Shown piece after piece: positions 29,220 to 44,359 of a stretch of 64,000 nucleotides of DNA (positions within the stretch are counted from its first letter, which is position 1; each line of letters opens with the position of its first letter). The notes under the pieces are model-generated. The model was not told the DNA's origin. It ran no database searches and worked only from the letters and a program-made list of their open reading frames with translations. A program made the position numbers and the translations under genes. Source of the DNA: Candidatus Bathyarchaeota archaeon (GTDB lineage: Archaea; Thermoproteota; Bathyarchaeia; TCS64); assembly GCA_963769425.1 (NCBI GenBank), contig CAVYLP010000003.1, positions 29,852-93,851 on the forward strand, read 5' to 3'.

Positions 29220-29529
29220 ATGTGGAGATTCGTAGTCTGCGGATATTTCAGTTGCGCGCGAATGACTCTCTTATTTTTAATAAAAGTGTCAAGTCAGACT
29301 CGCAAGTGAAAACGTTAGTATGGGGCTTCCCCCCGCTACTTTTAATAAATTTATGAATATTATCCAGTTCAACTACACATTCAGAACTCGAATATGCAGA
29401 AGAGGAGAAAAATCTCGCATCCTGTCGCGCACGCGTAAGGATTATGGGGTTGCGTATATTATGTGCTGGTCATCCTCGCACGCTTGCCGTCTCATACACT
29501 TTTTAAAATTCAATTCTCAATACAGAATC

Positions 29530-29844
29530 ATGAATGCCGAAGCATTTGACGATGAGGGATTTCTAATCAACGCCAATCTATGGACCAAAGAACTATCAAA
29601 GAGTATGGCTAAGACCCAATTCGACATAACCCTCACCGACCAACAGACAAAGATCATCCTTTACATCAGAGACTACTACAAAAAATGGGAGACACTACCA
29701 ATGCTTAAAACAATCAGAGACGAATTCGACCTAACCACATCAGAGATAGATGAACAATTCAAGAGAGGCAGCAGCACAGCGAGGGGAGTAATATGCAAAC
29801 TCGCCGGGTTACCAAAGATGCTATGCATAGCCTCAGGATGCTGA
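29530..29844 (+). CDS. TusE/DsrC-family sulfur-relay protein (about 105 aa from the internal Met; annotated ORF 29320..29844)
   Basis: C-terminal ...KLAGLPKMLCIASGC is close to the DsrC/TusE tail (…AGLPKPTGC…) with a penultimate-arm Cys. The internal LTDQQTKIILYIRDYYKKWETLP is DsrC-like. Confidence 0.55.
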   Translation: MNAEAFDDEGFLINANLWTKELSKSMAKTQFDITLTDQQTKIILYIRDYYKKWETLPMLKTIRDEFDLTTSEIDEQFKRGSSTARGVICKLAGLPKMLCIASGC

Positions 29845-29851
29845 GCGAACA

Positions 29852-30205
29852 ATGAGCGAAGAGCTATTGCTGGTATACGGCTGGGGACCGGAGGAGGATG
29901 GAAAACTCTCATCCCTCCTCTACATAGCAGAGACGGGGATATCGATGGGCATGAATACCTCGATCTTTCTCTTCACAGAAGCGGCGATCCTCGCCAAACA
30001 GGGTAACATCCAGAAGGTAAGCGTGGAAATGGACTCCAGGTTCAGACGAATCACAAACGACCCCAGGCTCAGGGTATATGTGTGCGAAGAGGCGGCAAGG
30101 AAGCGTGGGTTAACACGTGATAACATCGAGGAAAAAATCAGCCTTATTGGGTACGCCACCTTCCTTGACATAGCTACAAAAACTAAGACTGTGATAACAA
30201 TTTAG
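29852..30205 (+). CDS. DsrE/DsrF/TusD-like protein (117 aa)
   Basis: Conserved YVCEEAARKRGL Cys motif. Size matches. It starts 8 nt after the TusE-like gene. Confidence 0.55.
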   Translation: MSEELLLVYGWGPEEDGKLSSLLYIAETGISMGMNTSIFLFTEAAILAKQGNIQKVSVEMDSRFRRITNDPRLRVYVCEEAARKRGLTRDNIEEKISLIGYATFLDIATKTKTVITI

Positions 30206-30219
30206 GGGATAGATAAACG

Positions 30220-30612
30220 ATGATTGTGAAAAAGGTGAAGGAAGTCAAGGACTTCGACGTCAAGGAGGCGTATGGGCAGGATGCTGAGGGAGTATCGATC
30301 AGGTGGATCTCTGAGAAACGCACGGGCGGGGATGAGTATCTGCACAACTTCGCACTCAGATACTTCACCTTCAAGCCTAATGCCTACATGAATCCTCATA
30401 AGCATCCGTGGGAGCAGGAGATCGCCGTCACGAAGGGAAGGATTCAGGTTTTAGGAGCTGCCAATGTTCAGATTCTGAATGAGGGAGATGTAGGATATTT
30501 CCCGGCGAATGAGGTGCATGGTTTCAAGAATCTCTCTAATGGAGATAGCGAGTTCTATTGTGTGATTGGGTGTGTTGGGAAGGGTGAAAACTGTCTGGGC
30601 ATACAGGGCTAA
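30220..30612 (+). CDS. Cupin-domain protein (130 aa)
   Basis: PHKHPWEQEIAVTKG and EVHGFKN form the two cupin His/Glu motifs. Confidence 0.6.
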   Translation: MIVKKVKEVKDFDVKEAYGQDAEGVSIRWISEKRTGGDEYLHNFALRYFTFKPNAYMNPHKHPWEQEIAVTKGRIQVLGAANVQILNEGDVGYFPANEVHGFKNLSNGDSEFYCVIGCVGKGENCLGIQG

Positions 30613-30779
30613 AAAACATTATAGTTGGCTAATTAATTGAATCTCTTCATTCATTACCTACTTATTTGACTTGATTATGTTCTTGATGCCGAAGTATTGT
30701 AAATGAAAAAAAGATAGCGATTCTTAACCTAGCATCTTAACTAAAAGGATTTAATAGAGAAGGGTTAAAATCGGGCTCC

Positions 30780-31817
30780 GTGTTGAAGCCGTTGGTATCC
30801 ACCATGAAGGGGAAGGCGCTCGCACTCATCTCCGGGGGGCTCGACAGCACCCTCGCTGTGAAGATGGTGAAGGAGATGGGGCTCGAGGTCGAGGCTGTTC
30901 ACTTCACCACCCCATTCTGCCAGTGCGACAAGTGCAGCGTCGACACCACCGCGGAGCAGCTAGACCTCAAGGTCCACAACGTCTTCCTCGGGGAGGAGTT
31001 CCTCTCGATCGTCGTCGACCCGCCCCACGGCAGGGGCAGCCACATGAATGTCTGCATCGACTGCCGCATACTCATGCTCAGGAAGGCGAAGACCCTCGCC
31101 GAGCAGATAGGCGCGGGCTTCTTCGTCACCGGCGAGGTTCTCGGGCAGCGCCCCATGAGCCAGCATGGGTCGGCCATGCGCCTCATAGAGCGAGAGGCGG
31201 GCGTCGAGGACCTGGTACTCAGGCCACTCTCGGGCAAGCTCATGAAGGAGACGCGCATGGAGGACGAGGGAATCGTCGACCGCGACGACCTACTGGAGAT
31301 CAGTGGCAGGAGGAGGCTTCCGCAGTTCGAGCTCGCGGAGAAGCTGGGCGTCTACGACTACCCGTGCCCATCTGGCGGCTGCCTCCTAACCGACCCCGAG
31401 TTCGCCTCAAGGCTTCGGGACTACATCGACAACGAGGGCACGCCAACGATCGAGTCGATACTGCTCCTCAAGGTCGGCAGACACTTCAGGGCGAGGGAGA
31501 CACGCATCGTCGTCGGCAGGAACGAACTCGAGAACAATATTCTCGAGGGCTTCGCACAGAGAGGCGGAACGCGCCTCGAGGTCGAGGGGATAAACGGCCC
31601 CGTCACCCTTGTCATGGGATACGACGAATCCGCCATCAACGCCGCAGCCAAGCTCACCGCAAGATACTCGGATGCACCCAGAGACACACAAGTATGGGTA
31701 AAGGTCACGTCAAGCGCCTCCAAGAGCAGGCAACAAGTGGAGACCGTGGACGACTATACGCTTGAGTCTCTCAGGATCAAAGGCGCGAAGATCCGGTCCA
31801 AGAATACAGGCGTCTAA
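30780..31817 (+). CDS. PP-loop ATP pyrophosphatase of the ThiI/tRNA-sulfurtransferase type (no THUMP domain). Its likely start is M at 30807.
   Basis: LISGGLDSTLA (SGGxDS PP-loop). VCIDCRILMLRKAKTLAEQIGAGFFVTGEVLGQRPMSQ matches the ThiI catalytic-Cys / GExxGQxxSQ region. Confidence 0.6.
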   Translation: MLKPLVSTMKGKALALISGGLDSTLAVKMVKEMGLEVEAVHFTTPFCQCDKCSVDTTAEQLDLKVHNVFLGEEFLSIVVDPPHGRGSHMNVCIDCRILMLRKAKTLAEQIGAGFFVTGEVLGQRPMSQHGSAMRLIEREAGVEDLVLRPLSGKLMKETRMEDEGIVDRDDLLEISGRRRLPQFELAEKLGVYDYPCPSGGCLLTDPEFASRLRDYIDNEGTPTIESILLLKVGRHFRARETRIVVGRNELENNILEGFAQRGGTRLEVEGINGPVTLVMGYDESAINAAAKLTARYSDAPRDTQVWVKVTSSASKSRQQVETVDDYTLESLRIKGAKIRSKNTGV

Positions 31818-31931
31818 CCCCCTTACTGATCCCTTCATATGCCCGCGCAAGCTGATAATCACAGGGAAGCTAAAAGATTACGAGTACAACGAAACTAAAC
31901 CTATATATAATTTTTAAACAAATAGCAATGT

Positions 31932-32129
31932 ATGGCCTTCAAACGAATTTATCAGGACATCCCGGGAGTCAGCTGTCCATTATGCGGCGCATCCGTATTG
32001 AAAGATGCTAGAAATACAAAAAAGATCACCTATTTCTGCAGTGGAAAAACAACCCACGACCTAACAAATAACAAGACCATAAAGGCCTTTTTAATTGGAG
32101 AAGCCCTAACCCGACCTACAACACACTAG
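31932..32129 (+). CDS. Small Cys-containing hypothetical protein (65 aa)
   Basis: ORF with CPLCG...FCSGK (possible zinc ribbon). Confidence 0.3.
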   Translation: MAFKRIYQDIPGVSCPLCGASVLKDARNTKKITYFCSGKTTHDLTNNKTIKAFLIGEALTRPTTH

Positions 32130-32498
32130 ACTACGCCTACGCACATAGAAGCTAAGATAAAATCATTATTTCAAGAACATTATAGACTACTTAAATGCTT
32201 ATCTCATTTTTCGAACTTGCCTTTAGCTCAAAAAAACAATCAAACATACCGCCAGAAAATTAACCCAAAAGAACAATTACAAAACAACCAAAACCCATCA
32301 AAAAAAAAACGACCATGACATAAAACACAAAAAAACCCTAAAAACACATACAAACACACTTTAACAACCACTTTTTAACAAAAACAAGTGAATTGTGATG
32401 AAAGAGATCTCTTTCCCCGCTACCACGTACTACCCCCTCAACGTTCGCGTGTATAATAAGATAAATAAGGGTTATTTGCATTCTTTTTTTGACCTTGT

Positions 32499-32615
32499 AT
32501 GCCATGTAAGTGCAAAGAGTGTGGCGAAGTTTTTCCGAGTGCCAAGCAGAGAGATGCTCATATAGCCAAAGCACACCCAGAGAAGAAGACGCCAACAACT
32601 GCCAAGTCTTCATAG
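32499..32615 (+). CDS. Tiny C2H2-type zinc-finger protein (38 aa). It falls below the 60-aa cutoff of the ORF track.
   Basis: MPCKCKECGEVFPSAKQRDAHIAKAHPEKKTPTTAKSS has the C-x2-C-x12-H-x4-H spacing. A TATA-like ttatttg sits about 27 bp upstream (32472-32478). Confidence 0.45.
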   Translation: MPCKCKECGEVFPSAKQRDAHIAKAHPEKKTPTTAKSS

Positions 32616-32932
32616 AGCGATGGGACCTATACCCTATTTCGCTCGCGCGTATCATACTCAGATTTTTTCAGATTTCTAAGCTTTGAGAGTTCAAACGACA
32701 GCCTTGTACTACCCCCGCAACTTTTCAATTAAACTAAATATTATTTGGTTTAAAATACTTTTTCGCAAACGATGAAGGGCTTATGGCAAGAAGACCATAA
32801 TGCTCTCGTGATATTAATTGAAAAATTTATGTCGATTTAGAAATAAAATAATTATTTATTTATATTGATGATATTTTTTGAATATCAAATCGAGCAGAAT
32901 TTTTATATCTAAAATAAGAAGATGAATAATGT

Positions 32933-33841
32933 ATGATCAAAAGTAATAGAAGTAGATTGATACAAACCCAGGTTATGGCACAAATAGCGCCTCCAATTCT
33001 TGAGTCACAAGCTGGTTTCAATGGGGGCTATCTAACAACGTGGGATGGGAGGGCAAAGCACGGTGCTGGCCCTGGAGGTATCAAATATAACGTAAGATTG
33101 GGATCACCATGTTTGGGTTGGCCAGAGACGGAGTATCTTGAACCTGGGGTATCATTAAAAGAGGTTGAGGCAAAGGCTGCACCATATCAGAATCCCTCCA
33201 GCTTTTCGACTACTATGCATACGGTATGCTGTCTAGGCAATGAAGCTAGACTTGTATCCGGGGACGCAAAGAGTAGAAAAGGTGTAATTATAGGTAAGAG
33301 CGATAGACACGTCCTCGCTGAATTCTCTGATAAGATACTTGAGGACCTCACGATTGGTGACCATGTTCGTATCATAGCTGAAGGTGTGGGACTCGAAGTT
33401 GAGGGCTTTGAAGGCAGCGTCTTTAACATGTCAGGAGAATTTCTCGACTCATTAAATCTAAGTTTGAATGGGGGAAAACTTGTATTCCCTGTCGCCAAAA
33501 TCATTCCGGCTTATGCTATGGGAAGTGGGGTCGGTGGATCAGAGGCCCAGAGGGGTAACTTTAGTATTCAGAGTAATCCGCCGGAGCTTGTTGAGGAACT
33601 AGGAATTGCGGATTTGAAGATGGGTGATTTCGTTGCTCTCAAGGACATTCTGATGCATTATGGGAAGGCTTACCATAGAGGTGCGATTACGGTAGGTGTA
33701 GTGATGACTGGAGCGAGTGATAACGCTGGGCATGGTCCTGGTGTACTGGCGCTTGCTTCATCAAAACCTGGTATGATCCTCCCCGACGTAGATAGATCAG
33801 CAAACCTAAGGCGCTACATCGATGTGACCTACTATGATTGA
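32933..33841 (+). CDS. Uncharacterised protein, paralog A (302 aa)
   Basis: Full-length similarity to 33834..34703. Shared motifs are DGxxxxGxGPGG/NG, GxPCxGW, CxGNEA, SGDAK, GDxVxxK, MGSG and GHGPGV. Confidence 0.6.
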   Translation: MIKSNRSRLIQTQVMAQIAPPILESQAGFNGGYLTTWDGRAKHGAGPGGIKYNVRLGSPCLGWPETEYLEPGVSLKEVEAKAAPYQNPSSFSTTMHTVCCLGNEARLVSGDAKSRKGVIIGKSDRHVLAEFSDKILEDLTIGDHVRIIAEGVGLEVEGFEGSVFNMSGEFLDSLNLSLNGGKLVFPVAKIIPAYAMGSGVGGSEAQRGNFSIQSNPPELVEELGIADLKMGDFVALKDILMHYGKAYHRGAITVGVVMTGASDNAGHGPGVLALASSKPGMILPDVDRSANLRRYIDVTYYD

Positions 33842-34703
33842 GACCAATAAGGATCGACTCGTAAAGGTTGCCGTAATGGGCGAGGTTAATATGCCTTGGG
33901 CTAATGAGACCTACTCCACGGCGTTCGATGGTTCACCAAGAATTGGGAATGGACTTAGGCTTGGTATGAATGGAGTAAAATGTAACATCAAGATAGGTGA
34001 CCCATGCGCTGGCTGGGTTGAGGGTGAGCACGTAGAGCCTGGAGTGAGCGTCGCGAACCCAGATAATTTGCAGAACAACGCTCTCGCAGTACTCGCGTGT
34101 GTTGGCAACGAAGCCACGGTAAAATCCGGGGATGCCAAGGGAGCTAATGGAGTAATAACCGGTAAACACGGTCCATTTCATGTCCACTTCCGCGCAAAAG
34201 ATAAAGCGAACATCTCGATCGGCGATAAGGTCCAGTTCAAGGCTTGGGGGGTTGGATTAAAGATCAAAGGTTATGAAGATGTGAATATACATAAGTGCGG
34301 ACCAGAACTTCTCGAAAAAATGGGGATAGAGATCAAAAATGGTCGACTGCTTGTGCCAGTCGTCGCTGAGTTCCCTGCCGAGATCATGGGATCAGGCTAT
34401 GGTATGTCCCCACACTCAATCGACTACGACATCCAGAGCACGTGCCCAGATGTTGCTGTTGAGCTGGGTGTAGATAGGCTGCGCCTCGGCGACTTCGTTG
34501 TTTTAAGGGACCAGTTAAACGATTATGGTAGGGGATATTACAAGGGTGCAGTTAGTATAGGAGTCGTAATCCACGGCTGGAGTAATCACCCGGGACATGG
34601 ACCAGGCGTAACTACGTTAATCAGCGCGAGACCTGGCAGGGTAATGACCACAATCAATCCTGAAGCCAACATCGTTAATGCCCTAAATCTTAGTTTGGAT
34701 TAA
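33834..34703 (+). CDS. Uncharacterised protein, paralog B (289 aa). Its start overlaps the end of paralog A by 8 nt.
   Basis: See paralog A. Tight overlap indicates co-translation. Confidence 0.6.
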   Translation: MIETNKDRLVKVAVMGEVNMPWANETYSTAFDGSPRIGNGLRLGMNGVKCNIKIGDPCAGWVEGEHVEPGVSVANPDNLQNNALAVLACVGNEATVKSGDAKGANGVITGKHGPFHVHFRAKDKANISIGDKVQFKAWGVGLKIKGYEDVNIHKCGPELLEKMGIEIKNGRLLVPVVAEFPAEIMGSGYGMSPHSIDYDIQSTCPDVAVELGVDRLRLGDFVVLRDQLNDYGRGYYKGAVSIGVVIHGWSNHPGHGPGVTTLISARPGRVMTTINPEANIVNALNLSLD

Positions 34704-35121
34704 TCCCGGAATTCGTCGTCTTTGAATCATTTTTAGGACCAGAATATATGCGGATCCCAATCGCACCGCCAAATATAAATGCGATTAGTATGAGGAAATC
34801 ATTTACATTAATAGAAATACCACTAATGAATAGAAAAAGAGAGTAAAATAAATAGGCAATAAAACCCAATAGAACACCGACAGAGACATTAGTGTCTGGA
34901 TAACGTCTCTTGAATAAATTTGATACTGCAACTCCGCTTAATAATGAAGAGGAAAATATCACACCAAAATAAAGGTAGGGGTCAGCAGTAATGAACGTAA
35001 CTAAAATGAGGGCCATAATATAAGCAGGCGTTGCTTCTAATACTCCCCCTGATACATAAATTTGTAATGGAGTTTTAGTAGTTTTTTCTAAATTTTCCAC
35101 GTTAATACGATGAATCAACAC
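34690..35121 (-). CDS. Small polytopic membrane protein (143 aa)
   Basis: ORF with four hydrophobic segments. AT-rich. Confidence 0.35.
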   Translation of the reverse strand: MLIHRINVENLEKTTKTPLQIYVSGGVLEATPAYIMALILVTFITADPYLYFGVIFSSSLLSGVAVSNLFKRRYPDTNVSVGVLLGFIAYLFYSLFLFISGISINVNDFLILIAFIFGGAIGIRIYSGPKNDSKTTNSGINPN

Positions 35122-35225
35122 AATAAATATCTTTTGAGACGAGCACGGCTCATATGGTGAATTTTCCAGAATCCATCACGATGAAGGGCTTTTGGTCTTG
35201 CTTCGTCACGGTGATTGTAGGATGC

Positions 35226-36119
35226 TCAACTAGTAGAATCCATATGGGTCTTTGATGGGTAAAAGCTCCCTCCAAAAGCCACATGTATGGTACCTATCAC
35301 CTTCTCTGCCTCGAGGAACTCATCGACGAGTCTTGCTTTCGGGTTTATTCCAAAGGAGAATTCTCCCAAGTATCTCGACCCAGGGTCTCTTCGAAGTTCC
35401 TCCTCTATTCGACTCTTGATTTTCTTGTCGCTACATTTGACTAAGCCTGCTTTGCCATTTTTGGAACTGATCTCGACTGGAGTTTCGCGGTAGAGTCTGT
35501 CGAATCCGCCTGATGTGCAGACAAGTTTTCCATCAAATGAGTCACCCACGGGAGGCATGCACATAACTTCACCACATGGTAGGTTGCCACCGTATTCTAC
35601 TATGAATTCATGGTCTATTCTGAATGTGAAGTCGGCGCCTAACTGGCTCTGTACTCTAACCTTCTTTGTATCCTTCAGTTTCTCTCTGAGCTTCTCGCCG
35701 AAGGCAAACATCGACTCGTATTCAGCATCTGTAAGGGAAGCAGCGCCCTCTGTGAACATGTCTATCGTTAGACCTGGGCAGTGACAGATTCTTGCTGATT
35801 TATGCCGTTCGAGTTTGTTGAACTGGATCCTGTAGGCTGTCTCTTCACCAGAGTTTCTGAAGAGGTTAATATACAGGTCTGGTTTATTTGCAGCAATTAG
35901 CTCCTTCGTGTGATCATCAAGTTTGGTTCGTATGTTGCTGCTTGTATCCATCATACATAACTTCGTCCAGAGACCGAGTTCGAGTGTAGCCCTCGAAAAT
36001 AAGTCTCCAAGTGGCTTCAACTCTGAGTCGCAAAATATGAGGGCTGATTCACCCACAGTAGCGTCTCGTGTGTTAAAAAGTGCAGTCTTAACTGCTGAAA
36101 GGGCATCCAATCGAGTCAC
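35226..36119 (-). CDS. M29-like (aminopeptidase T/AmpS-type) metallopeptidase-like protein. It is the last gene of the membrane-module operon.
   Basis: Overall resemblance to thermophilic aminopeptidase family M29 (tentative). The start overlaps the upstream gene by 4 nt. Confidence 0.4.
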   Translation of the reverse strand: MTRLDALSAVKTALFNTRDATVGESALIFCDSELKPLGDLFSRATLELGLWTKLCMMDTSSNIRTKLDDHTKELIAANKPDLYINLFRNSGEETAYRIQFNKLERHKSARICHCPGLTIDMFTEGAASLTDAEYESMFAFGEKLREKLKDTKKVRVQSQLGADFTFRIDHEFIVEYGGNLPCGEVMCMPPVGDSFDGKLVCTSGGFDRLYRETPVEISSKNGKAGLVKCSDKKIKSRIEEELRRDPGSRYLGEFSFGINPKARLVDEFLEAEKVIGTIHVAFGGSFYPSKTHMDSTS

Positions 36120-36817
36120 ATCTCGTATCCCATCGATTTTCTCAACAGATTCCTCGTTTTCAGTACATAGACGGTTGCTACGATGACGACTATCATTCCG
36201 ATTGTGAGGTACATGTTATCGGAATTCAGAAGCATTACCATCCTTCCATTCACTAGAGCAGTTCTGCTCATGAAGGTGTTAGCGAAGTAGGCACCGAAGG
36301 CGATGTATATCAGGTAGTATCCGATGCGGGACGTCGTTCCCAAGGCTCCTGTGTGTGGCCTCGAGAAGTAGAAGTACAGCAGAGAGGTTATCACAGTGAC
36401 AACCACCAGGATGTTCTCAAGAGATTGCGTCAGGTTTCCGGTGATGAATAGAGGCACTATTGTCGCTTGGATCTGGCTTGTGAGACTGACTTCTATCACT
36501 GCCCTCAATGTGATGCCCATACCGACGCCTATGGAGAGCGCGATTGGGTATCTTGCTACCCATCGATATTTCTCTGTGTACCTGAGATACGTTGCTAAGC
36601 CAAGGAGAATGGGGATTATGACTAGATAGTTTCCGCTCTGTAGTGGAGTTATACCGTAGTCCATGATGAAGCCTATCGCAGCCACGAGGGCGAAGGCTTG
36701 GGCTGTAGCAACGAATGTGTGTTCAGCGAAGACTGTGAAGGGATTATCTTTGAACAACATACTGAAAATGCATAGGGTGAAGAAGACTACAAGTAGACTA
36801 TCTAAACCAATGACCAT
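36116..36817 (-). CDS. Polytopic membrane protein (233 aa)
   Basis: About 6 hydrophobic segments. Translationally coupled with its neighbours. Confidence 0.5.
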   Translation of the reverse strand: MVIGLDSLLVVFFTLCIFSMLFKDNPFTVFAEHTFVATAQAFALVAAIGFIMDYGITPLQSGNYLVIIPILLGLATYLRYTEKYRWVARYPIALSIGVGMGITLRAVIEVSLTSQIQATIVPLFITGNLTQSLENILVVVTVITSLLYFYFSRPHTGALGTTSRIGYYLIYIAFGAYFANTFMSRTALVNGRMVMLLNSDNMYLTIGMIVVIVATVYVLKTRNLLRKSMGYEM

Positions 36818-37632
36818 TACTTCTTACCTCCTATCCCCACGAAGTACACTATATTGCCAATAACCACGGCTGCTATCAGCCATAGGTGGGCGATTGAGAG
36901 AACGTCGGTGCTCTCTACTCCTAGACCGGGGGTTTTTGTCAGTATCTCGAATTCGCCTGCTCCTCTGACGCTGGAGAGCAACCCAGAGATCTGGCCTGCT
37001 TGGAAATATGGAAGCATAGTAGGCAGCATAACACCTGTTTCGCCGGCTATGACTTTGTTATTAAATTTCTGTTGGAACTGCATGAGGAAACTAGTGGCGC
37101 TAGCTGAGCCTGAATCGAATGTTATTATCAGTGTTATGTCAGCACCGGTTTTTACGTTATCGAGGAAAGTTCCGGAGATCGAGTTACCGTAGTAATCATT
37201 GTGCACAACACCGTGGAAGTTAGTTGCTAATGCGGCTAACCCAGTGTCCCAACCCGCGACGTACCCTATATTGACATAGTCTTGACCGTATTTTTTCCCT
37301 TCCAAGTTAACGTTTTTCAGAGTATAGTCGATCCACTGAGAACCCATAGTCCATGCGCTAAAGTAGATCACCTTGAGGGGTCTGGTCATTAGAAACTGTG
37401 TGGTGTCGAGGACTTGTGGGCCCAGTTCGCCCCAGGATGCTGCGTCGCCACCGTAGTGGACCAGCACGATGCTGCCTGATGGTAAGTTTACAACGGTGTT
37501 ATAGTAGTCCTGAGTATACTGGCTTACCGTTATCGGTAATCCTAGTGGGTGAAGTATAGGGATAGCTATGGCTATGAACATGATTATGTACACTATTCGC
37601 TTCTGGTTTTGGTAGCCATTTAACCAACTCAT
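36817..37632 (-). CDS. Bitopic membrane protein with a large extracytoplasmic domain (271 aa)
   Basis: N-terminal TM segment, central soluble domain (LVHYGGDAASWGELGPQV...) and a C-terminal TM ending in GIGGKK. Confidence 0.5.
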   Translation of the reverse strand: MSWLNGYQNQKRIVYIIMFIAIAIPILHPLGLPITVSQYTQDYYNTVVNLPSGSIVLVHYGGDAASWGELGPQVLDTTQFLMTRPLKVIYFSAWTMGSQWIDYTLKNVNLEGKKYGQDYVNIGYVAGWDTGLAALATNFHGVVHNDYYGNSISGTFLDNVKTGADITLIITFDSGSASATSFLMQFQQKFNNKVIAGETGVMLPTMLPYFQAGQISGLLSSVRGAGEFEILTKTPGLGVESTDVLSIAHLWLIAAVVIGNIVYFVGIGGKK

Positions 37633-37637
37633 TCAAA

Positions 37638-38276
37638 TCACTTCTCCGAAGTTCCGGCCAGGAAACCATACTCCTTGCCGGTCATGACCCTTAGAGCGAG
37701 GGCAACTGCAGCCAATGTGATACTTATGCCAATGCCTCTGCTCACGCCCATTGTTGGATAATTTAATATGAATGTGCCAATTGGGTCGAATCCTCCCCAT
37801 ATGATTGCACCGATAGGTGCGTTTTTCAAGAGAACTATAAATGCGGATATGAGGAGCAGTGATGACTCGATGCTCTTGAATCTGAATGATTTGTAGGCTG
37901 CGGACGCCATGTAGAAGAGGGCTATTGAGTAGAATGTGGCGCTAAGTGGGGAGTACACGTTATTGTATATGTAGCTTGAGATATCACCCGAGTTCCCCTG
38001 AATTACGCCTATGATCGAAGTTATAGAGGTCAATAGAATAAACCAGGCGGCATAGTACCATCCAGGTCTTCTTTTAGCAATTTTTTTCCCGTAATTCTGA
38101 AACATGTTGATGAAACCGAGTCCGATTGCGAAAGCTGCTATAACTGTTCCCCAGTTGGTTAGTTGATCGGTGGTTGCCCTAAGGATGGGTATATCGAGGT
38201 TCCAATCTAAGAGGAAAACGATGATTGCTATCGCTGTGATTGCTATCGATATCTCCTTACGTTTATACCATGACAT
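37638..38276 (-). CDS. Polytopic membrane protein (212 aa)
   Basis: About 6 hydrophobic segments. Confidence 0.5.
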   Translation of the reverse strand: MSWYKRKEISIAITAIAIIVFLLDWNLDIPILRATTDQLTNWGTVIAAFAIGLGFINMFQNYGKKIAKRRPGWYYAAWFILLTSITSIIGVIQGNSGDISSYIYNNVYSPLSATFYSIALFYMASAAYKSFRFKSIESSLLLISAFIVLLKNAPIGAIIWGGFDPIGTFILNYPTMGVSRGIGISITLAAVALALRVMTGKEYGFLAGTSEK

Positions 38277-38287
38277 TTCAATGCCTC

Positions 38288-39076
38288 CTAAACGCTAAGA
38301 AGTATGGATACGATGTTGTATCCGAATATTGCAACCACAGCACCGACGACGATTAAACCGACAACAAAGATTTTGCCCCAGTCTTGGCCACGAAGGCTTC
38401 CTATCTCCACGGGATCCTTTGAGAGATAAGCTCCAGCTGCATAAAGCTCCTCACCGATAAGTACATAATCAGCTATACAAGCCAGCACTGCCGTCTGCTG
38501 ATAGTTTTGGCCGCTGCCAGCGATGACGATAGCCCCAACCGACTCCGCTTCCTCACTCAAAGCCAGTTGTTCGGGGCCATACAGTCCAGTGAAGGCGGCT
38601 GCGGCAATGTTTTTTTCGTGGATCAGCCCTATTTGGCCGGTAGCCCACGCAAACTGGTCTTCTGAGAGGAATATCACATTCTCTGGTTTAAAGTCCTCAA
38701 TTCTTCCCTCGTCATCGTAGGCGTTCCTAACAGTTTCGACAGCCTGAGGGTAGATGATAGATGTCCCTATGTCTCCACCAGCGGGGACGTATAATGTTGT
38801 ATGTGTGCGCGCTGCAATTTTGGCAATATAACCCGTTATGCTCAAGGCCGCTAGCGTGTTTGGGCCAAAACTATCTAAACCATAGCCACTCATAACAGGG
38901 CGGTTCATCTCCGAAGACCTTTCAACAGCCTCCTCGATAGCATCTAGTGCGGCAACTTTTCTGATATATGGTAACTCCTTGGCTTTTCCAGCCTGCGTCA
39001 TCAGATAATAAATCACTAAAAAAAGTCCGATGAGCACGGCAAATGGAAAAGCCTTGCCAGGGAATAACAGTAACAA
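38288..39076 (-). CDS. Bitopic membrane protein with a soluble central domain (262 aa). It is the first gene of the module.
   Basis: N- and C-terminal TM segments. It is preceded by a 245-bp, roughly 25% GC intergenic region (39077-39320). Confidence 0.5.
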   Translation of the reverse strand: MLLLFPGKAFPFAVLIGLFLVIYYLMTQAGKAKELPYIRKVAALDAIEEAVERSSEMNRPVMSGYGLDSFGPNTLAALSITGYIAKIAARTHTTLYVPAGGDIGTSIIYPQAVETVRNAYDDEGRIEDFKPENVIFLSEDQFAWATGQIGLIHEKNIAAAAFTGLYGPEQLALSEEAESVGAIVIAGSGQNYQQTAVLACIADYVLIGEELYAAGAYLSKDPVEIGSLRGQDWGKIFVVGLIVVGAVVAIFGYNIVSILLSV

Positions 39077-39320
39077 TTTAAGTCAGATTAATCGATATTT
39101 GTGATACATATTAATAACTTTCCATTAAAACTTATTTCATTTGAGGAAAAATTTAGTATTTTTTAGTCAATTAAGTAATATTCACGACTGATTAACTGGA
39201 TGAAATACTATTTTTATCAATTATGTCATATTTTAAAACACTAATACTTACTTATTATTTAACTTAATAACCATCAATTTTCTAACTTACTGCCGGGAAG
39301 AGAATGATATGAATAAGTTA

Positions 39321-40475
39321 TCACTCATCTAGTACCTCAATGTTCGCTCTCGGCAGAGTCACCCGCTTCCCGTTATTTAGTTCAACCTCGACTACCCTCA
39401 CGTCTGCTTCTGTCTCAACCTTGTGAAGATTGATTGGCAGACTAATGACAGTGCCATTCTCCCCGAAATAGGGGGTCTGAATCACTCTTACAGGGGTTCC
39501 AACCCTCATAGTCGATGGAGCTTCTTCTTTCTCGTCTGTGGGGGGTGTTTCCTTGTTCGGAATGATGATCTCTGGACGTTGAACACCGGCCCTGATCTGG
39601 GTGGCGCCATTGATGTGGGCTAGATATCCGTTGAACTCGTTGAAGAGGTCAAAGGTTCTCTTCGACATCGCCATCTTGCCGAAGCCCTCGGTGATGATCA
39701 GGGTTAACCCAATTTCTTCTTCCCCGGTTATCGCCACTCCGATAGCGTGGCCTATAAAGCTCGTCAAATCTTCCTCTTTAATGCCTCCCGAGATTATGCC
39801 TGATACGCCGAGTTCAACAGCTTTTTTTAACGTCTCGAAGGTGACGATTCCCCCCGACACAAGTATGTTACCTTTATGTTCGGACTGAATCGCATCGGCT
39901 GAAAGTTGATCCTCTGGGGAACTTACCATCACAGCAATATTGCCGTGTGCCTCTCCGCCTACACCGAATATTCCCTGGATGAAAGCAGCCTCCGTCTCTA
40001 TTACGGCGCCAACATCTTCGATGATCTCACTGACCCTTCCAGGAACATATGCGTTCACACTGATGGGCTCCGGGTGAGTCCTGACAATGATCCTACCCGT
40101 CAAAGCTGAAACATTATCAACTACGCCATCTATTGGAGACCTAACGAATTTTTTTATGAGTCCAAACATCGTTATGCACTGCGCGATAACCTCGTTCTCT
40201 TTGACAGGGTCACCAACCTTCTTCACTAAGTAACTCTCGAGCTCCTCAGAATCAACGTTCAGAATACCCGCTGCTTTAAGGATGTAGGGTCTTCCCGGCA
40301 TTTTTACCTCGGCCACAACGGTGTCGTAGTCGACGACGTCCCCCAGTTTGACAACGACGTTGCCGTGCATTGGCAACTTCCTGATCTTCTTTACATCCAC
40401 TCTTCTCTTGACTTTCAGGCCGGGTGAGTAAGCTTGTGCCTCGGAGGCAACCGCGTCGGTTTCGATAATTGTCAT
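39321..40475 (-). CDS. Uncharacterised protein (about 384 aa from MTIIETD...) partnered with a MutL-family ATPase
   Basis: Its start lies 4 nt downstream of the upstream stop. N-terminal beta-clip/SAF-like segment (VKLGDVVDYDTVVAEVKMPG), Gly-rich central region (GIVTFETLKKAVELGVSGIISGGIKEE) and a C-terminal KOW-like region (RVGTPVRV). No family was recognised. Confidence 0.45.
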   Translation of the reverse strand: MTIIETDAVASEAQAYSPGLKVKRRVDVKKIRKLPMHGNVVVKLGDVVDYDTVVAEVKMPGRPYILKAAGILNVDSEELESYLVKKVGDPVKENEVIAQCITMFGLIKKFVRSPIDGVVDNVSALTGRIIVRTHPEPISVNAYVPGRVSEIIEDVGAVIETEAAFIQGIFGVGGEAHGNIAVMVSSPEDQLSADAIQSEHKGNILVSGGIVTFETLKKAVELGVSGIISGGIKEEDLTSFIGHAIGVAITGEEEIGLTLIITEGFGKMAMSKRTFDLFNEFNGYLAHINGATQIRAGVQRPEIIIPNKETPPTDEKEEAPSTMRVGTPVRVIQTPYFGENGTVISLPINLHKVETEADVRVVEVELNNGKRVTLPRANIEVLDE

Positions 40476-40479
40476 CAGT

Positions 40480-42291
40480 TTACACCTCCTTGTTCGGGTA
40501 AAGCCCCAGCGATTCATTCCAGGTTTTTATCTTTCGTTTACAGAGCTCTGGGCTTTCTGGGAATCTTATTGGTCTCCCCCTCGCGTCGATGTAGACCCCG
40601 ACGACGCCGCCTTGTATGGTTGTTTTCAGGGTTTTCCCGGGCCCAGCCCCAACATCGAAACCCCGCGAAGGTGTGATCACCGCCTTCGCCTCATGCCCCT
40701 CGGGGAGGGAAACCTTCACTATCTCACCGAACTTTAGCTCTTTATCCACTTTAGAGCCATCGGGTATCTCAAAGTTGACCCTTAGTGCCTCCGCTCCGAA
40801 CTCAGCTGTGCCGACTGGAGCGATGACAGTTCCAACCCTCACAAGGCAATCTTTGTCGAATATCTGCCATGCCGCATCCGGGTGGATTGTAGAGAGAACG
40901 CCGAGGTGAGGCATCATGAAGACGCTGTCTTGGAAGATCCTTGTAACGCCCTCTGGTTGAAACGCGTCGGTCATTATGAGCATCGACTGCTCGCGTCTTG
41001 GGGCATGTGAAAGGAGGCCTCCGGTACCAGCTATAATTCTTATCTTCATCATGTCTATGTATGACTCTGCAAGCTCCTGGTTGAGGATCTGGTCGAGGTC
41101 CCTCTTCTCACCGACGCCCTTGAGGCGTGTTGCTATGCTTTTATGGTGGACTAGTCCTAGCCTAAGGGCCTCCCTAGCGACAGCGTGTTCCAAGATCAAG
41201 TTATCTAGTGTATGAGGTATGATTGTGGGCCGGATCATCTTATTCATGAGCCTGTTCTTAACCTCAGATTCGTCGAGGTCGAATGGGAGCCACCTCACAA
41301 TATTCTCGACACCTGTCTCGAGGAGCACGTTACATATGCTGTAGCTCATCCCGAGGTTGGCGCTGACGCTCCTCACGAACCTCCCATCAAAGATCGAGTA
41401 GATATTTGTGGTGGCTCCACCTAGCCCCACACCTAAAACGTTCTCCTTGAATGTGTTGGCGATGAGCTGCATCGCCATCCCCTCGCCGCCGGGGGTGGGC
41501 ATTATGTCGATGTTTGTCCACTTCATCAGATCGGGATACCCTGGGGCGTGGGACATTACATGCTTCATGAATATCTCGTGTATGGCTCGTCTTGCGGGCT
41601 CTGTGTTCTCCACATCCAGTTTCGGTCGCAAATTCGGGACGCTTGTGAAGTCGAAGTCCTTGCACAAGATCTCCTTAACCTCCTCGGTGGCATCTTTGTT
41701 ACCCGCGTAGAGGAGGGGGAGGCTATAATCTACCCCGAGCCTCGGTTTAGGCTCCGCCGCCTTAATCAGCTCCGCGGTTTCGAGAACGACCTTTATCGCG
41801 CCGCCATCCGTTCCTCCTGCTAATAGGATCATGTCTGGCCTGAGGCTTCGAATCCTCTGTATTTTGACGTAGTCTGGCCGCAGGTCGTTAGTGGCGATCA
41901 CATCCATGACCATCGCTCCGGCGCCGAGTGCAGCCCTGTTCGCGCTCTCAGCGGTGATCCCTTTCATCGCGCCGGCGACCATCATCTGCAATCCACCACC
42001 AGCGCTACTCGTTGTGCAATAGATGTCCACGCCCGAGTCGTTGATGCACGGCATCGAGATCCCGTGTCCATCTGGGGAGAGTATCTTATGGTTGGTCAAT
42101 TCTTCGATCTCCTTGATGGCGTTCTTAACACCCTGGGTTACGTTCTCGAAGGGTGCTTCCACGGTTGTAGGTGCCTCACCGGCTACGACGAATCTCCACC
42201 CGTCCGCCCTGTTGGCAAAGAAGCGGGCCTTAGTGGTTGTGCTACCGACGTCGGTTGCCAGAATGTACCGAGCCTCCTCGAGTGGCTTCAT
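40480..42291 (-). CDS. MutL/GlmL-family ASKHA-fold ATPase (glutamate-mutase accessory protein-like) with an extra C-terminal domain of about 140 aa
   Basis: N-terminal LATDVGSTTTKARFF (phosphate-1), LLAGGTDGG and GVGLGGATTNIYS (phosphate-2/adenosine motifs) as in glutamate mutase component L. 603 aa, against about 460 for GlmL. Confidence 0.6.
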   Translation of the reverse strand: MKPLEEARYILATDVGSTTTKARFFANRADGWRFVVAGEAPTTVEAPFENVTQGVKNAIKEIEELTNHKILSPDGHGISMPCINDSGVDIYCTTSSAGGGLQMMVAGAMKGITAESANRAALGAGAMVMDVIATNDLRPDYVKIQRIRSLRPDMILLAGGTDGGAIKVVLETAELIKAAEPKPRLGVDYSLPLLYAGNKDATEEVKEILCKDFDFTSVPNLRPKLDVENTEPARRAIHEIFMKHVMSHAPGYPDLMKWTNIDIMPTPGGEGMAMQLIANTFKENVLGVGLGGATTNIYSIFDGRFVRSVSANLGMSYSICNVLLETGVENIVRWLPFDLDESEVKNRLMNKMIRPTIIPHTLDNLILEHAVAREALRLGLVHHKSIATRLKGVGEKRDLDQILNQELAESYIDMMKIRIIAGTGGLLSHAPRREQSMLIMTDAFQPEGVTRIFQDSVFMMPHLGVLSTIHPDAAWQIFDKDCLVRVGTVIAPVGTAEFGAEALRVNFEIPDGSKVDKELKFGEIVKVSLPEGHEAKAVITPSRGFDVGAGPGKTLKTTIQGGVVGVYIDARGRPIRFPESPELCKRKIKTWNESLGLYPNKEV

Positions 42292-42550: not shown

Positions 42551-44359
42551 TTGGATGAGTTCTCGATTCTGATAACGGATACCGCCGTTGTCGATGGATC
42601 AGGTAAGCCTCCATACAGGGCTAGCATAGGTATAAGGGGAGACAAGGTCGAGCAGGTCGGTATGGTGAAAGGAGACGCCGTGACCGAGATCGACGGAAAG
42701 AAGCTCACAGCCATTCCGGGTTTTATAGACTCACACAGTCACGGGGATTTCAACATCCTCTTCTTCCCCCGTTGCGAAAGTTATCTCTACCAGGGCGTCA
42801 CCACGATGGTGACTGGACAATGCGGCATGTCCCCCGCCCCGATAGGCGATAAGATCACCCTACCAGGGATCGCAGAGTATTACCAGTTCGAGCTCGAACC
42901 CTACAAGTACGAGCCCACTCACACCGTCTACCCACGTGAGACAGTCAACAGACTAATGAGGGAGAAATTTGGGTGGACGATAGACTGGCACTCAATGGCT
43001 GACTGGTTCAAAGTAGTAGAAGAGAAGAAGACGTCGATCAACCTCGCAACCATGGTCGGTCACGTTACGGTAAGGAGGACCGTGATGGAGGATGATTTTG
43101 AGAGGCCGGCTAAAAAGGAGGAGAGGGATATGATGGCGTCACTGATCCGAAGGTCCCTAGATGAAGGGTGCATCGGTTTATCCATGGGTCTCGACTACGA
43201 CCCGGACACCTTTGCCGACAGGGAAGAGCTTGTTGATGCGTGTAAAGTAGCCGCAGAGTACGGAGCCATCTTCGTCCCCCACTCCCGGAGGACGGGGAGG
43301 CGCAAAGGCGTAACCGCGGGTCAGAGGCCACACGACAAGATCGATGCCATAAACGAGGTCATTGACCTCTGCCGCGCATCCAAGGTGCGCATGAATATCG
43401 CCCACCTCTTCACAGGCTGGTACATTAACCCGGACACCAGTTCGACGCTGGAGGAGGCGAATAGGAGAGCTACCCTCAAGGTCATAGACGACGCGATCAA
43501 GGAGGGACTCGATATCAGCTTCGATGCGCTCCCAAGTTGCATGACCTCAGTCTATGGAGGCGCCGCCTTCCTCTGCGGCAGCTTTGAACCATGGGTCAGG
43601 GAGAAGGGAAGCCGAGCCGAGTTCGCGAAGTGGCTCAATGTAGAAGAGTACAGGCAGGAGATAAAGGACGCCGTAAAGGCGGGTAAGTGGTACACGAGAG
43701 AGGGACCCAATATAAATCCCCACTGGGCTGAAGGCATGACGATACTGAGACATAGGGACCCAAACACAATAAACAAAACGATCGCAAAGATAGCGGAAGA
43801 GAGGAGCAAAGACCCCTACGACGTCTGGTTCGACCTGATAAGGGAGGATCCAGATGCCCTATGTGGACATCCATTCACGTATCCCGGAGGACCGCCAGAC
43901 CTTAACGCCGAATACCATAAAGTATTCTGGCAGCACCCAGCCGTGCCCTAGGGATCGTTCATGCAGACGTATACGATTACCAGTATGAACCCCCGGTCCC
44001 CACCTACATGCTGCCCATGGTCATGTTTTACTCAGCATTCCCCCATCATTCCTAGAGAAATTCGTGATTCGCGAGAAGATACTCACGATAGAACAGGCAG
44101 ATACAAAACCTCGACGCAGCCCGCGAAACGCTACGGTCTAAAGGGAAGAGGCGAGATAAAATCCAGATCCTTCGCCGATGTCGTTCTTCTAGAAATGGAC
44201 AAGCTGAAGGTAAACGGAACACCCTTGGAGCCGAAGAAAAAACCATCAGGCATACCTTATGTCATCGTCAATGGCTCGGTGGTGATTGAAAATGGTGAAC
44301 ACACTGGTGCAAAGCCAGGCCAAGTGATCAGGAAGGCCTATAGCCTCCCATCTTCTTAA
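42551..44359 (+). pseudogene. D-aminoacylase (N-acyl-D-amino-acid deacylase, amidohydrolase superfamily) with an in-frame TAG and a garbled segment before the C-terminal domain
   Basis: N-terminal PGFIDSHSHGDF metal-binding motif. C-terminal ...GLKGRGEIKSRSFADVVLL...GIPYVIVNG lies in the same frame after TAG 43949-43951. The segment 43952-44130 fits the family only if further indels are assumed. Confidence 0.6.

Follow-up and report, generated by a model that had tools for sequence, protein, structure and literature searches.

Two overlapping genes of the window, by which we mean the whole analysed stretch of 64,000 nucleotides, encode paralogous proteins of the DUF4438 family, one with the full set of family-invariant residues and the other with a degenerate putative site, and we consider it probable, judging from sequence comparison, that the two form a hetero-complex in which a canonical subunit is joined with a degenerate one. 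The upstream gene, hereafter A (32933..33841, plus strand), encodes the site-degenerate paralog of 302 aa, and the downstream gene, hereafter B (33834..34703, plus strand), encodes the canonical subunit of 289 aa. An initial annotation of this DNA had described them as overlapping tandem paralogs with about 35-40% identity from end to end; both ORFs were recovered, with the 8-nt overlap at 33834-33841, and BLASTP gave 114 identities in 306 positions (37%) over their entire length with an E-value of 1e-65, i.e., far beyond chance.

Both proteins contain the two Pfam domains of DUF4438, PF14505 in the N-terminal part (95.5 bits in A and 128.1 bits in B, with a gathering cut-off of 24.9) and PF20999 in the C-terminal part (118.1 and 132.7 bits, respectively, with a cut-off of 27), and in both of them the domains follow each other in the required order and cover the protein; so the guess that the family might be one of the Pfam DUFs was right. 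The only relative with a solved structure is TM1086 of Thermotoga maritima, matched with E-values of 3e-67 (B) and 6e-47 (A), and no other PDB relative was retrieved by a profile search of all PDB sequences with E-values up to 10. The predicted models of A and B possess the double beta-barrel fold of TM1086, and each of them aligns to a single uninterrupted chain of TM1086, with 276-277 of 282 residues aligned, the Cys region included. The crystal structure of TM1086 has been available since 2008-2010 (PDB entries 3DCL, with 5 chains, and 3N99, with 30 chains), and a paper on crystallisation methods notes that the asymmetric unit exceeds 1 MDa. In the literature searched, this paper and an unrelated mention of the accession were the only finds, and no function was assigned there to DUF4438 or TM1086. 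The profiles of NCBIfam, PADLOC and PHROGs did not match A or B, which are thus placed in no anti-phage defence or phage family, and the pair was assigned to no characterised enzyme; DUF4438 is a family already catalogued, structurally solved and functionally blank. As to the origin of the double barrel, an internal duplication was considered and is not claimed here, hhalign of the N- against the C-terminal domain having returned only a 13-column LxxLxhGDxV match with a probability of 5%.

A search with B collected 3,357 clusters at 90% identity and a search with TM1086 more than 7,300, while a profile search of 1.84 billion representatives yielded 891 clusters at 50% identity. The bacterial members come from Thermotogae, many Clostridia, Melainabacteria, Bipolaricaulota, PVC bacteria and Actinobacteria, the archaeal ones from Bathyarchaeia and from Thor- and Promethearchaeota (Asgard archaea); the closest homologs of the window proteins are annotated as Candidatus Bathyarchaeota or Bathyarchaeia.

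The distinction between the two paralogs emerges from an alignment of 417 family members, in which groups were compared and positions are numbered according to the window protein B. H66, H112, S187, D197, Y198, D199, H247 and H255 are conserved in 93-100% of the 335 canonical sequences, a set composed of B-type, single-copy archaeal and 120 bacterial TM1086-like proteins. In the 78 A-type sequences these canonical invariants are replaced by Y, K or C (H66), G, V, A or S (H112), H, N or Y (D197), W, F or L (Y198), C or S (D199) and F, T or C (H247), position 187 is variable, and H255, the His of GHG, which is present in 100% of the canonical proteins, is kept in only 50%. The two types have in common the glycine scaffold and N51, E68, C89, N92, K102, D131, D220, D226, S250 and N279. 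Protein B of the window keeps all the family-wide invariants (H66, E68, C89, N92, H112, D131, S187, D197, Y198, D199, D220, D226, H247, H255 and N279). Protein A retains the fold, the glycine scaffold, E68, C89, N92, K102, D131, D220, D226 and N279; however, it has Y, S, N, F, S and T in place of H66, H112, D197, Y198, D199 and H247, respectively, and the absence of these residues makes it a representative of a divergent, site-degenerate subfamily. The A-types also exhibit conserved residues of their own, K111 (100%), W198 (64%) and C199 (65%), and for this reason A may have a distinct function rather than none.

The motifs highlighted by the initial annotation, CxGNEA, SGDAK and GHGPGV, are indeed all present in both translated proteins. 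The first of them reads CLGNEA in A (aa 100-105; 33230..33247) and CVGNEA in B (aa 89-94, comprising C89, N92 and E93; 34098..34115), as follows from translation and column conservation; GHGPGV occupies aa 266-271 of A (33728..33745), its His being present in this genome, and aa 254-259 of B (34593..34610), with H255 as the His. All these features, as well as those listed below for B, lie on the plus strand. However, the highlighted motifs belong to the shared scaffold and are not the telling residues: H66, H112, D197, D199 and H247, which discriminate the two proteins, occur only in B, within H66-V-E68 (34029..34037; the His is lost in A-types), in GKH (H112, 34167..34169), in D197-Y198-D199 (34422..34430) and at 34572..34574 (H247). 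The supposed invariance of the Cys is correct for the canonical members, where this residue, like the His of GHG, is found in 100% of sequences, and does not extend to the A-types, where C89 is retained in 85% and the His, as said above, in half.

The pairing of the two types is conserved well beyond the window. A GTDB species genome scan revealed the A-type gene (product of ~290-310 aa) directly upstream of the B-type gene (~283-293 aa), on the same strand, in 28 of 28 loci of bathyarchaeal type; measured between the A stop and the B start, the spacing in homologous loci lies within -17 to +17 nt and mostly within -8 to +5, and the other neighbours of the pairs vary among lineages. In loci long enough to tell, no A-type gene was seen without a directly adjoining B-type one, and several genomes harbor two pairs (e.g., CP070784.1, with L011 and L016). 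In the NJ tree the A-types group into a single clade and branch within it in the same pattern as the B-types do within theirs, which points to one old duplication followed by co-divergence. The two types also occur fused by nature, in P0361 (636 aa, full length) and in the N-truncated P0009 and P0066: in each of these chains an A-like half is joined by a short linker to a B-like half, and in 3 of 3 cases the first half is degenerate and the second canonical; MAFFT places all A-type sequences onto the B half of the natural fusion. The dN/dS ratios between the window genes and their orthologs in L001, a locus with 90% identity, are 0.059 for A and 0.078 for B, so that both genes are under strong purifying selection. 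The heteromeric pair suggested by the initial annotation is thus strongly backed by the co-conservation in 28 loci, the mirrored trees, the tight coupling of the genes and the fusions, which together with the spacing and the selection support, rather than prove, a physical A-B complex.

Two side observations concern these data sets. Loci L013 and L018 are recorded as Patescibacteria and Candidatus Desulfaltia, respectively, yet their A/B pairs nest inside bathyarchaeal clades, which suggests mis-binned contigs or horizontal transfer. Residues 1-30 of P0361 make up a hydrophobic, signal-peptide-like segment, MKKFIISFVSVSSLLILAAFPVSVTG, absent from the window proteins; it may reflect a miscalled start, or else secretion or membrane anchoring.

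The presence of two genes could also be read in another way, namely that A and B are sub- or neo-functionalised proteins, each forming homo-oligomers of its own with a different ligand, and are co-transcribed only because they serve the same process. TM1086 does form homo-oligomers in the crystal, and single-copy members make up most of the family, as in 87 loci of another archaeal clade (found by a metagenome scan with an alignment of that narrower clade) and in the examined genomes of Thermotoga and Clostridia; the A-type-specific W198, C199 and K111 and the strong purifying selection on the A-type proteins are also in line with this reading. Nevertheless, we hold it to be unlikely in view of the A-B fusions in a single polypeptide, the strictly mirrored phylogenies, the adjacency in all 28 loci and the lack, in sufficiently long loci, of A-types separated from B-types. 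The hetero-complex remains the explanation that we prefer.

The structure of the gene junction fits the joint production of the two proteins. The overlap, ATGATTGA (33834..33841, plus strand), superimposes the stop of A on the start of B, and in the junction sequence TAC TAT GAT TGA / ATG ATT GAG the ATG of B is embedded; such an overlap agrees with translational coupling. A is listed in the database as P0121, a protein of 288 aa that begins at Met15; however, the start at 32933 is better supported, since the first 14 residues, with the N-terminal MIKSNRSRLIQ, align with B and TM1086, and since ~140 nt upstream of it are conserved in L001, the sequence farther upstream being not conserved. This conserved segment includes a TATA-like box, TTTTTATATC, recognised in the alignment of the upstream regions of the window and L001 (32900..32909, plus strand; 24-33 nt 5' of the ATG of A), which we infer, from position only, to be a promoter element. 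At its 3' end B overlaps tail to tail, by 14 nt (34690..34703), with a convergent ORF for a 143-aa membrane protein (34690..35121, minus strand), and the arrangement in L001 is the same.

The region 5' of gene A is an AT-rich spacer of 1.1 kb (31817-32932), of which only the last ~140 nt are conserved with L001; it contains two small plus-strand ORFs (~31929-32130 and ~32501-32616) with Cys-pair and C2H2-like zinc-ribbon motifs. Still farther 5', at 29320-31817 on the plus strand, sulfur-relay-like genes are located, encoding DsrC-like, DsrE/DsrH-like and cupin proteins and a ThiI-like PP-loop protein fused to NFACT-R_2, an RNA-binding domain. Across the window (1-64000) the G+C content, computed in 2-kb steps, climbs from left to right, starting at 0.25 and reaching ~0.6, which is unusually heterogeneous for one contig.

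As for the site itself, degenerate copies of DUF4438 have arisen outside the A-type clade as well. In L032 and L033, both of them actinobacterial, the paralogs of each pair are sisters in the tree, and it is the downstream copy that carries H66L, E68Q, H112S, D197C, D199Q and H255Y, the upstream one being canonical; the L014 pair looks like a separate duplication with partial loss. The repeated joint loss of residues of the H66/H112/D197/D199 type argues for one functional site, to which residues lost together in degenerate paralogs would most likely belong. In B, as the functional subunit with all family-wide invariants, this putative site would be composed of H66, E68, C89, N92, H112 and D131 from the N-terminal barrel and S187, D197, D199, D220, H247 and H255 from the C-terminal barrel, and we suppose it to be catalytic. 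Four His, several Asp/Glu and one Cys suggest a metal centre or a Cys-His nucleophile system, and the His/Asp/Glu pattern of B is compatible, at the sequence level, with a metal-dependent hydrolase; still, a catalytic metal or Cys-His centre is a tentative assignment, somewhat less likely than not.

We propose that A and B would be two subunits of a hetero-oligomeric DUF4438 complex with the double beta-barrel fold of TM1086, produced in equal quantity from a single near-leaderless transcript with translational coupling. In this complex A would be a folded, selected and site-dead partner with a non-catalytic structural or regulatory role, co-assembling with B in a 1:1 ratio. The counts of 5 and 30 chains in the TM1086 crystals agree with assemblies built from pentamers, for instance a decamer; as a matter of speculation, a pentameric ring would need stacked rings or a decamer to provide the 1:1 ratio, as in an A5B5 arrangement. 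A still broader proposal can be formulated, according to which DUF4438 would be an unrecognised class of ring- or cage-forming enzymes with a His/Asp/Glu/Cys site, a metal or nucleophile centre, contributed by both barrels and revealed by natural knock-out paralogs of at least 2 separate origins, and would operate in Bathyarchaeia as an obligate hetero-oligomer in which active subunits are combined with dead ones, the two being fused in some lineages; taken as a whole, this proposal is doubtful.

Analysis of the genomic neighbourhood gives only loose indications of the substrate. The survey covered 33 genome loci and 87 metagenome loci, which were clustered, and included a Pfam census of 12 non-redundant loci with 92 neighbours; it revealed no conserved partner gene, none of the families occurring in more than 3-4 of the 12 census loci. 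TiaS, proteasome alpha, HAD, eS26 and CBS proteins, which recur near DUF4438 genes, were considered as functional partners and rejected, as their recurrence reflects lineage synteny. Rfam detected no riboswitch or other RNA beside the DUF4438 genes in the window and 10 loci. In the window, the neighbours that had been initially named as aminopeptidase, D-aminoacylase and MutL-like were confirmed by Pfam as M28 with a PA domain, an M29-like protein, Amidohydro_3 and PF13941 'MutL', the latter being, as we take it, the glutamate-mutase-associated type and not the mismatch-repair MutL. The genes around the bathyarchaeal pairs encode aminotransferases (classes I/II, III and IV, DegT), peptidases (M20, M28, M29-like, TldD/PmbA), amidohydrolases, Asparaginase_2, hydantoinase and AstE/AspA proteins, and transporters (MFS, ECF, Opp); the peptidases, aminotransferases and transporters recur only loosely near the pairs. 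The best local link is the M29-like gene, which adjoins the pair on its downstream side, in convergent orientation, in the window and L001 and on its upstream side, in divergent orientation, in L007; this link is confined to one subclade. Considering this loose context in Bathyarchaeia, a small nitrogen compound or a peptide would be the probable substrate.

The suggestion of an amino-acid-metabolism context made by the initial annotation therefore applies, and loosely, to the near relatives of the pair, while the neighbours of farther relatives are different and the bacterial contexts show no relation to each other. In a genome of Kiritimatiellae and one of Verrucomicrobiota (L036, 43-2285; L037, 5023-7432) a tRNA is followed by a single canonical DUF4438 gene and then by the genes of GcvH (the H protein of glycine cleavage) and a lipoate-protein ligase (LplA/B catalytic domain); in Thermotoga the DUF4438 gene lies among aminoacyl-tRNA synthetase genes and precedes a rhomboid gene, and in Zhenhengia it follows an Rce1-like gene. 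In the single-copy archaeal clade it is found ~50 nt upstream of eS26 on the same strand in ~40 metagenome loci (L039-L125; e.g., L039, 7001-8231), where three CBS-domain genes and one for a CDP-alcohol phosphatidyltransferase flank it.

These contexts of the farther relatives bear on the view that DUF4438 is a ring-shaped binding or scaffold protein, e.g., for RNA, translation factors or a membrane protease, in which the invariant His and Asp bind a ligand or stabilise the assembly. The position directly upstream of eS26, the synthetase and rhomboid surroundings in Thermotoga and the Rce1-like neighbour in Zhenhengia would agree with it, as would the structural neighbours obtained by model comparison besides TM1086, which are only non-catalytic beta-barrels: the F1/V1-ATPase crown domains, the EF-Tu domain-2-like barrels of SelB, eRF3 and Hbs1, Gar1, eL33, MreC and the barrel domain of M42 peptidases. 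However, the dense set of invariant His, Asp and Cys fits such a role less well, and we regard it as improbable. As for the idea, also raised in the initial annotation, that the Cys of C-x-G-N-E-A is a self-processing site of the pyruvoyl or Ntn type generating the active enzyme, it is very improbable in spite of the 100% conservation of this Cys in canonical members, the small residues preceding it and the Ntn-type or amidase genes (Asparaginase_2, GATase_4) among some neighbours, given that the sequence and fold comparisons detected no similarity to a known self-processing family (pyruvoyl-dependent decarboxylases/reductases, Ntn hydrolases with their alpha-beta-beta-alpha sandwich, PrdA/GrdE-type proproteins), that the models match one continuous TM1086 chain through the Cys region, that G, N, A or S takes the place of the Cys in 15% of A-types, and that functional and degenerate copies are told apart by His/Asp and not by the Cys.

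Several other genes near the pair deserve to be mentioned in their own right. A minus-strand cluster convergent with the pair (34690-42291) comprises, in this order, the 143-aa membrane ORF, the M29-like gene, three membrane proteins that match no Pfam family, DUF6754, a protein of 398 aa likewise unmatched in Pfam, and PF13941 'MutL'; the gene order is the same in L001, and the cluster could encode an uncharacterised membrane complex. Its M29-like ORF (35226-36119, minus strand) is 297 aa long and ends with THMDSTS, while the L001 homolog is longer by ~20-25 residues; a truncated C-terminus, a frameshift or a difference in sequence may be the cause. The D-aminoacylase-like Amidohydro_3 is split into two consecutive plus-strand ORFs (42551-43951 and 43961-44359), the first matching the N-terminal and the second the C-terminal part of its Pfam model; an interruption of the gene, a recoded stop or an error of sequencing could account for the split.

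In general, the preferred reading, a hetero-complex of canonical B and degenerate A, makes the pair a kind of natural experiment, which points to residues that are dispensable for the fold yet indispensable in canonical members and thereby yields a short list of candidate active-site residues for the widespread DUF4438. It also predicts that the bathyarchaeal A and B need co-expression to form the native particle. Bathyarchaeia are abundant and uncultured sediment archaea, so each conserved uncharacterised complex is a gap in their metabolic models.

Among known systems, the nearest one is the family itself (PF14505 plus PF20999; 3DCL, 3N99), and membership in it provides no mechanistic explanation for A and B. 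TM1086 and most of its relatives are single-copy, whereas here two paralogs co-evolve, and in comparison with TM1086 the window protein A has lost H66, H112, D197, Y198, D199 and H247. In its organisation the pair resembles the TldD/TldE (PmbA) metalloprotease and the alpha/beta subunits of the mitochondrial processing peptidase, MPP (M16), where one paralog is catalytic, the other retains only the fold, and the two form an obligate heteromer; A would correspond to TldE or MPP alpha, and B to TldD or MPP beta. In A/B, too, one of the paired paralogs bears the putative active residues and the other does not; however, neither system is related to A/B in sequence or fold, and the analogy is only organisational, catalysis and a heteromer being proposals in the case of A/B. 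As for the alpha/beta (A/B) rings of F1/V1-ATPases, the likeness consists in one generic six-stranded barrel, and DUF4438 is devoid of the P-loop ATPase domain. What is new is the conserved pairing of a canonical and a degenerate DUF4438 protein, the repeated origin of such pairs, their fusion and the list of residues that results from them.
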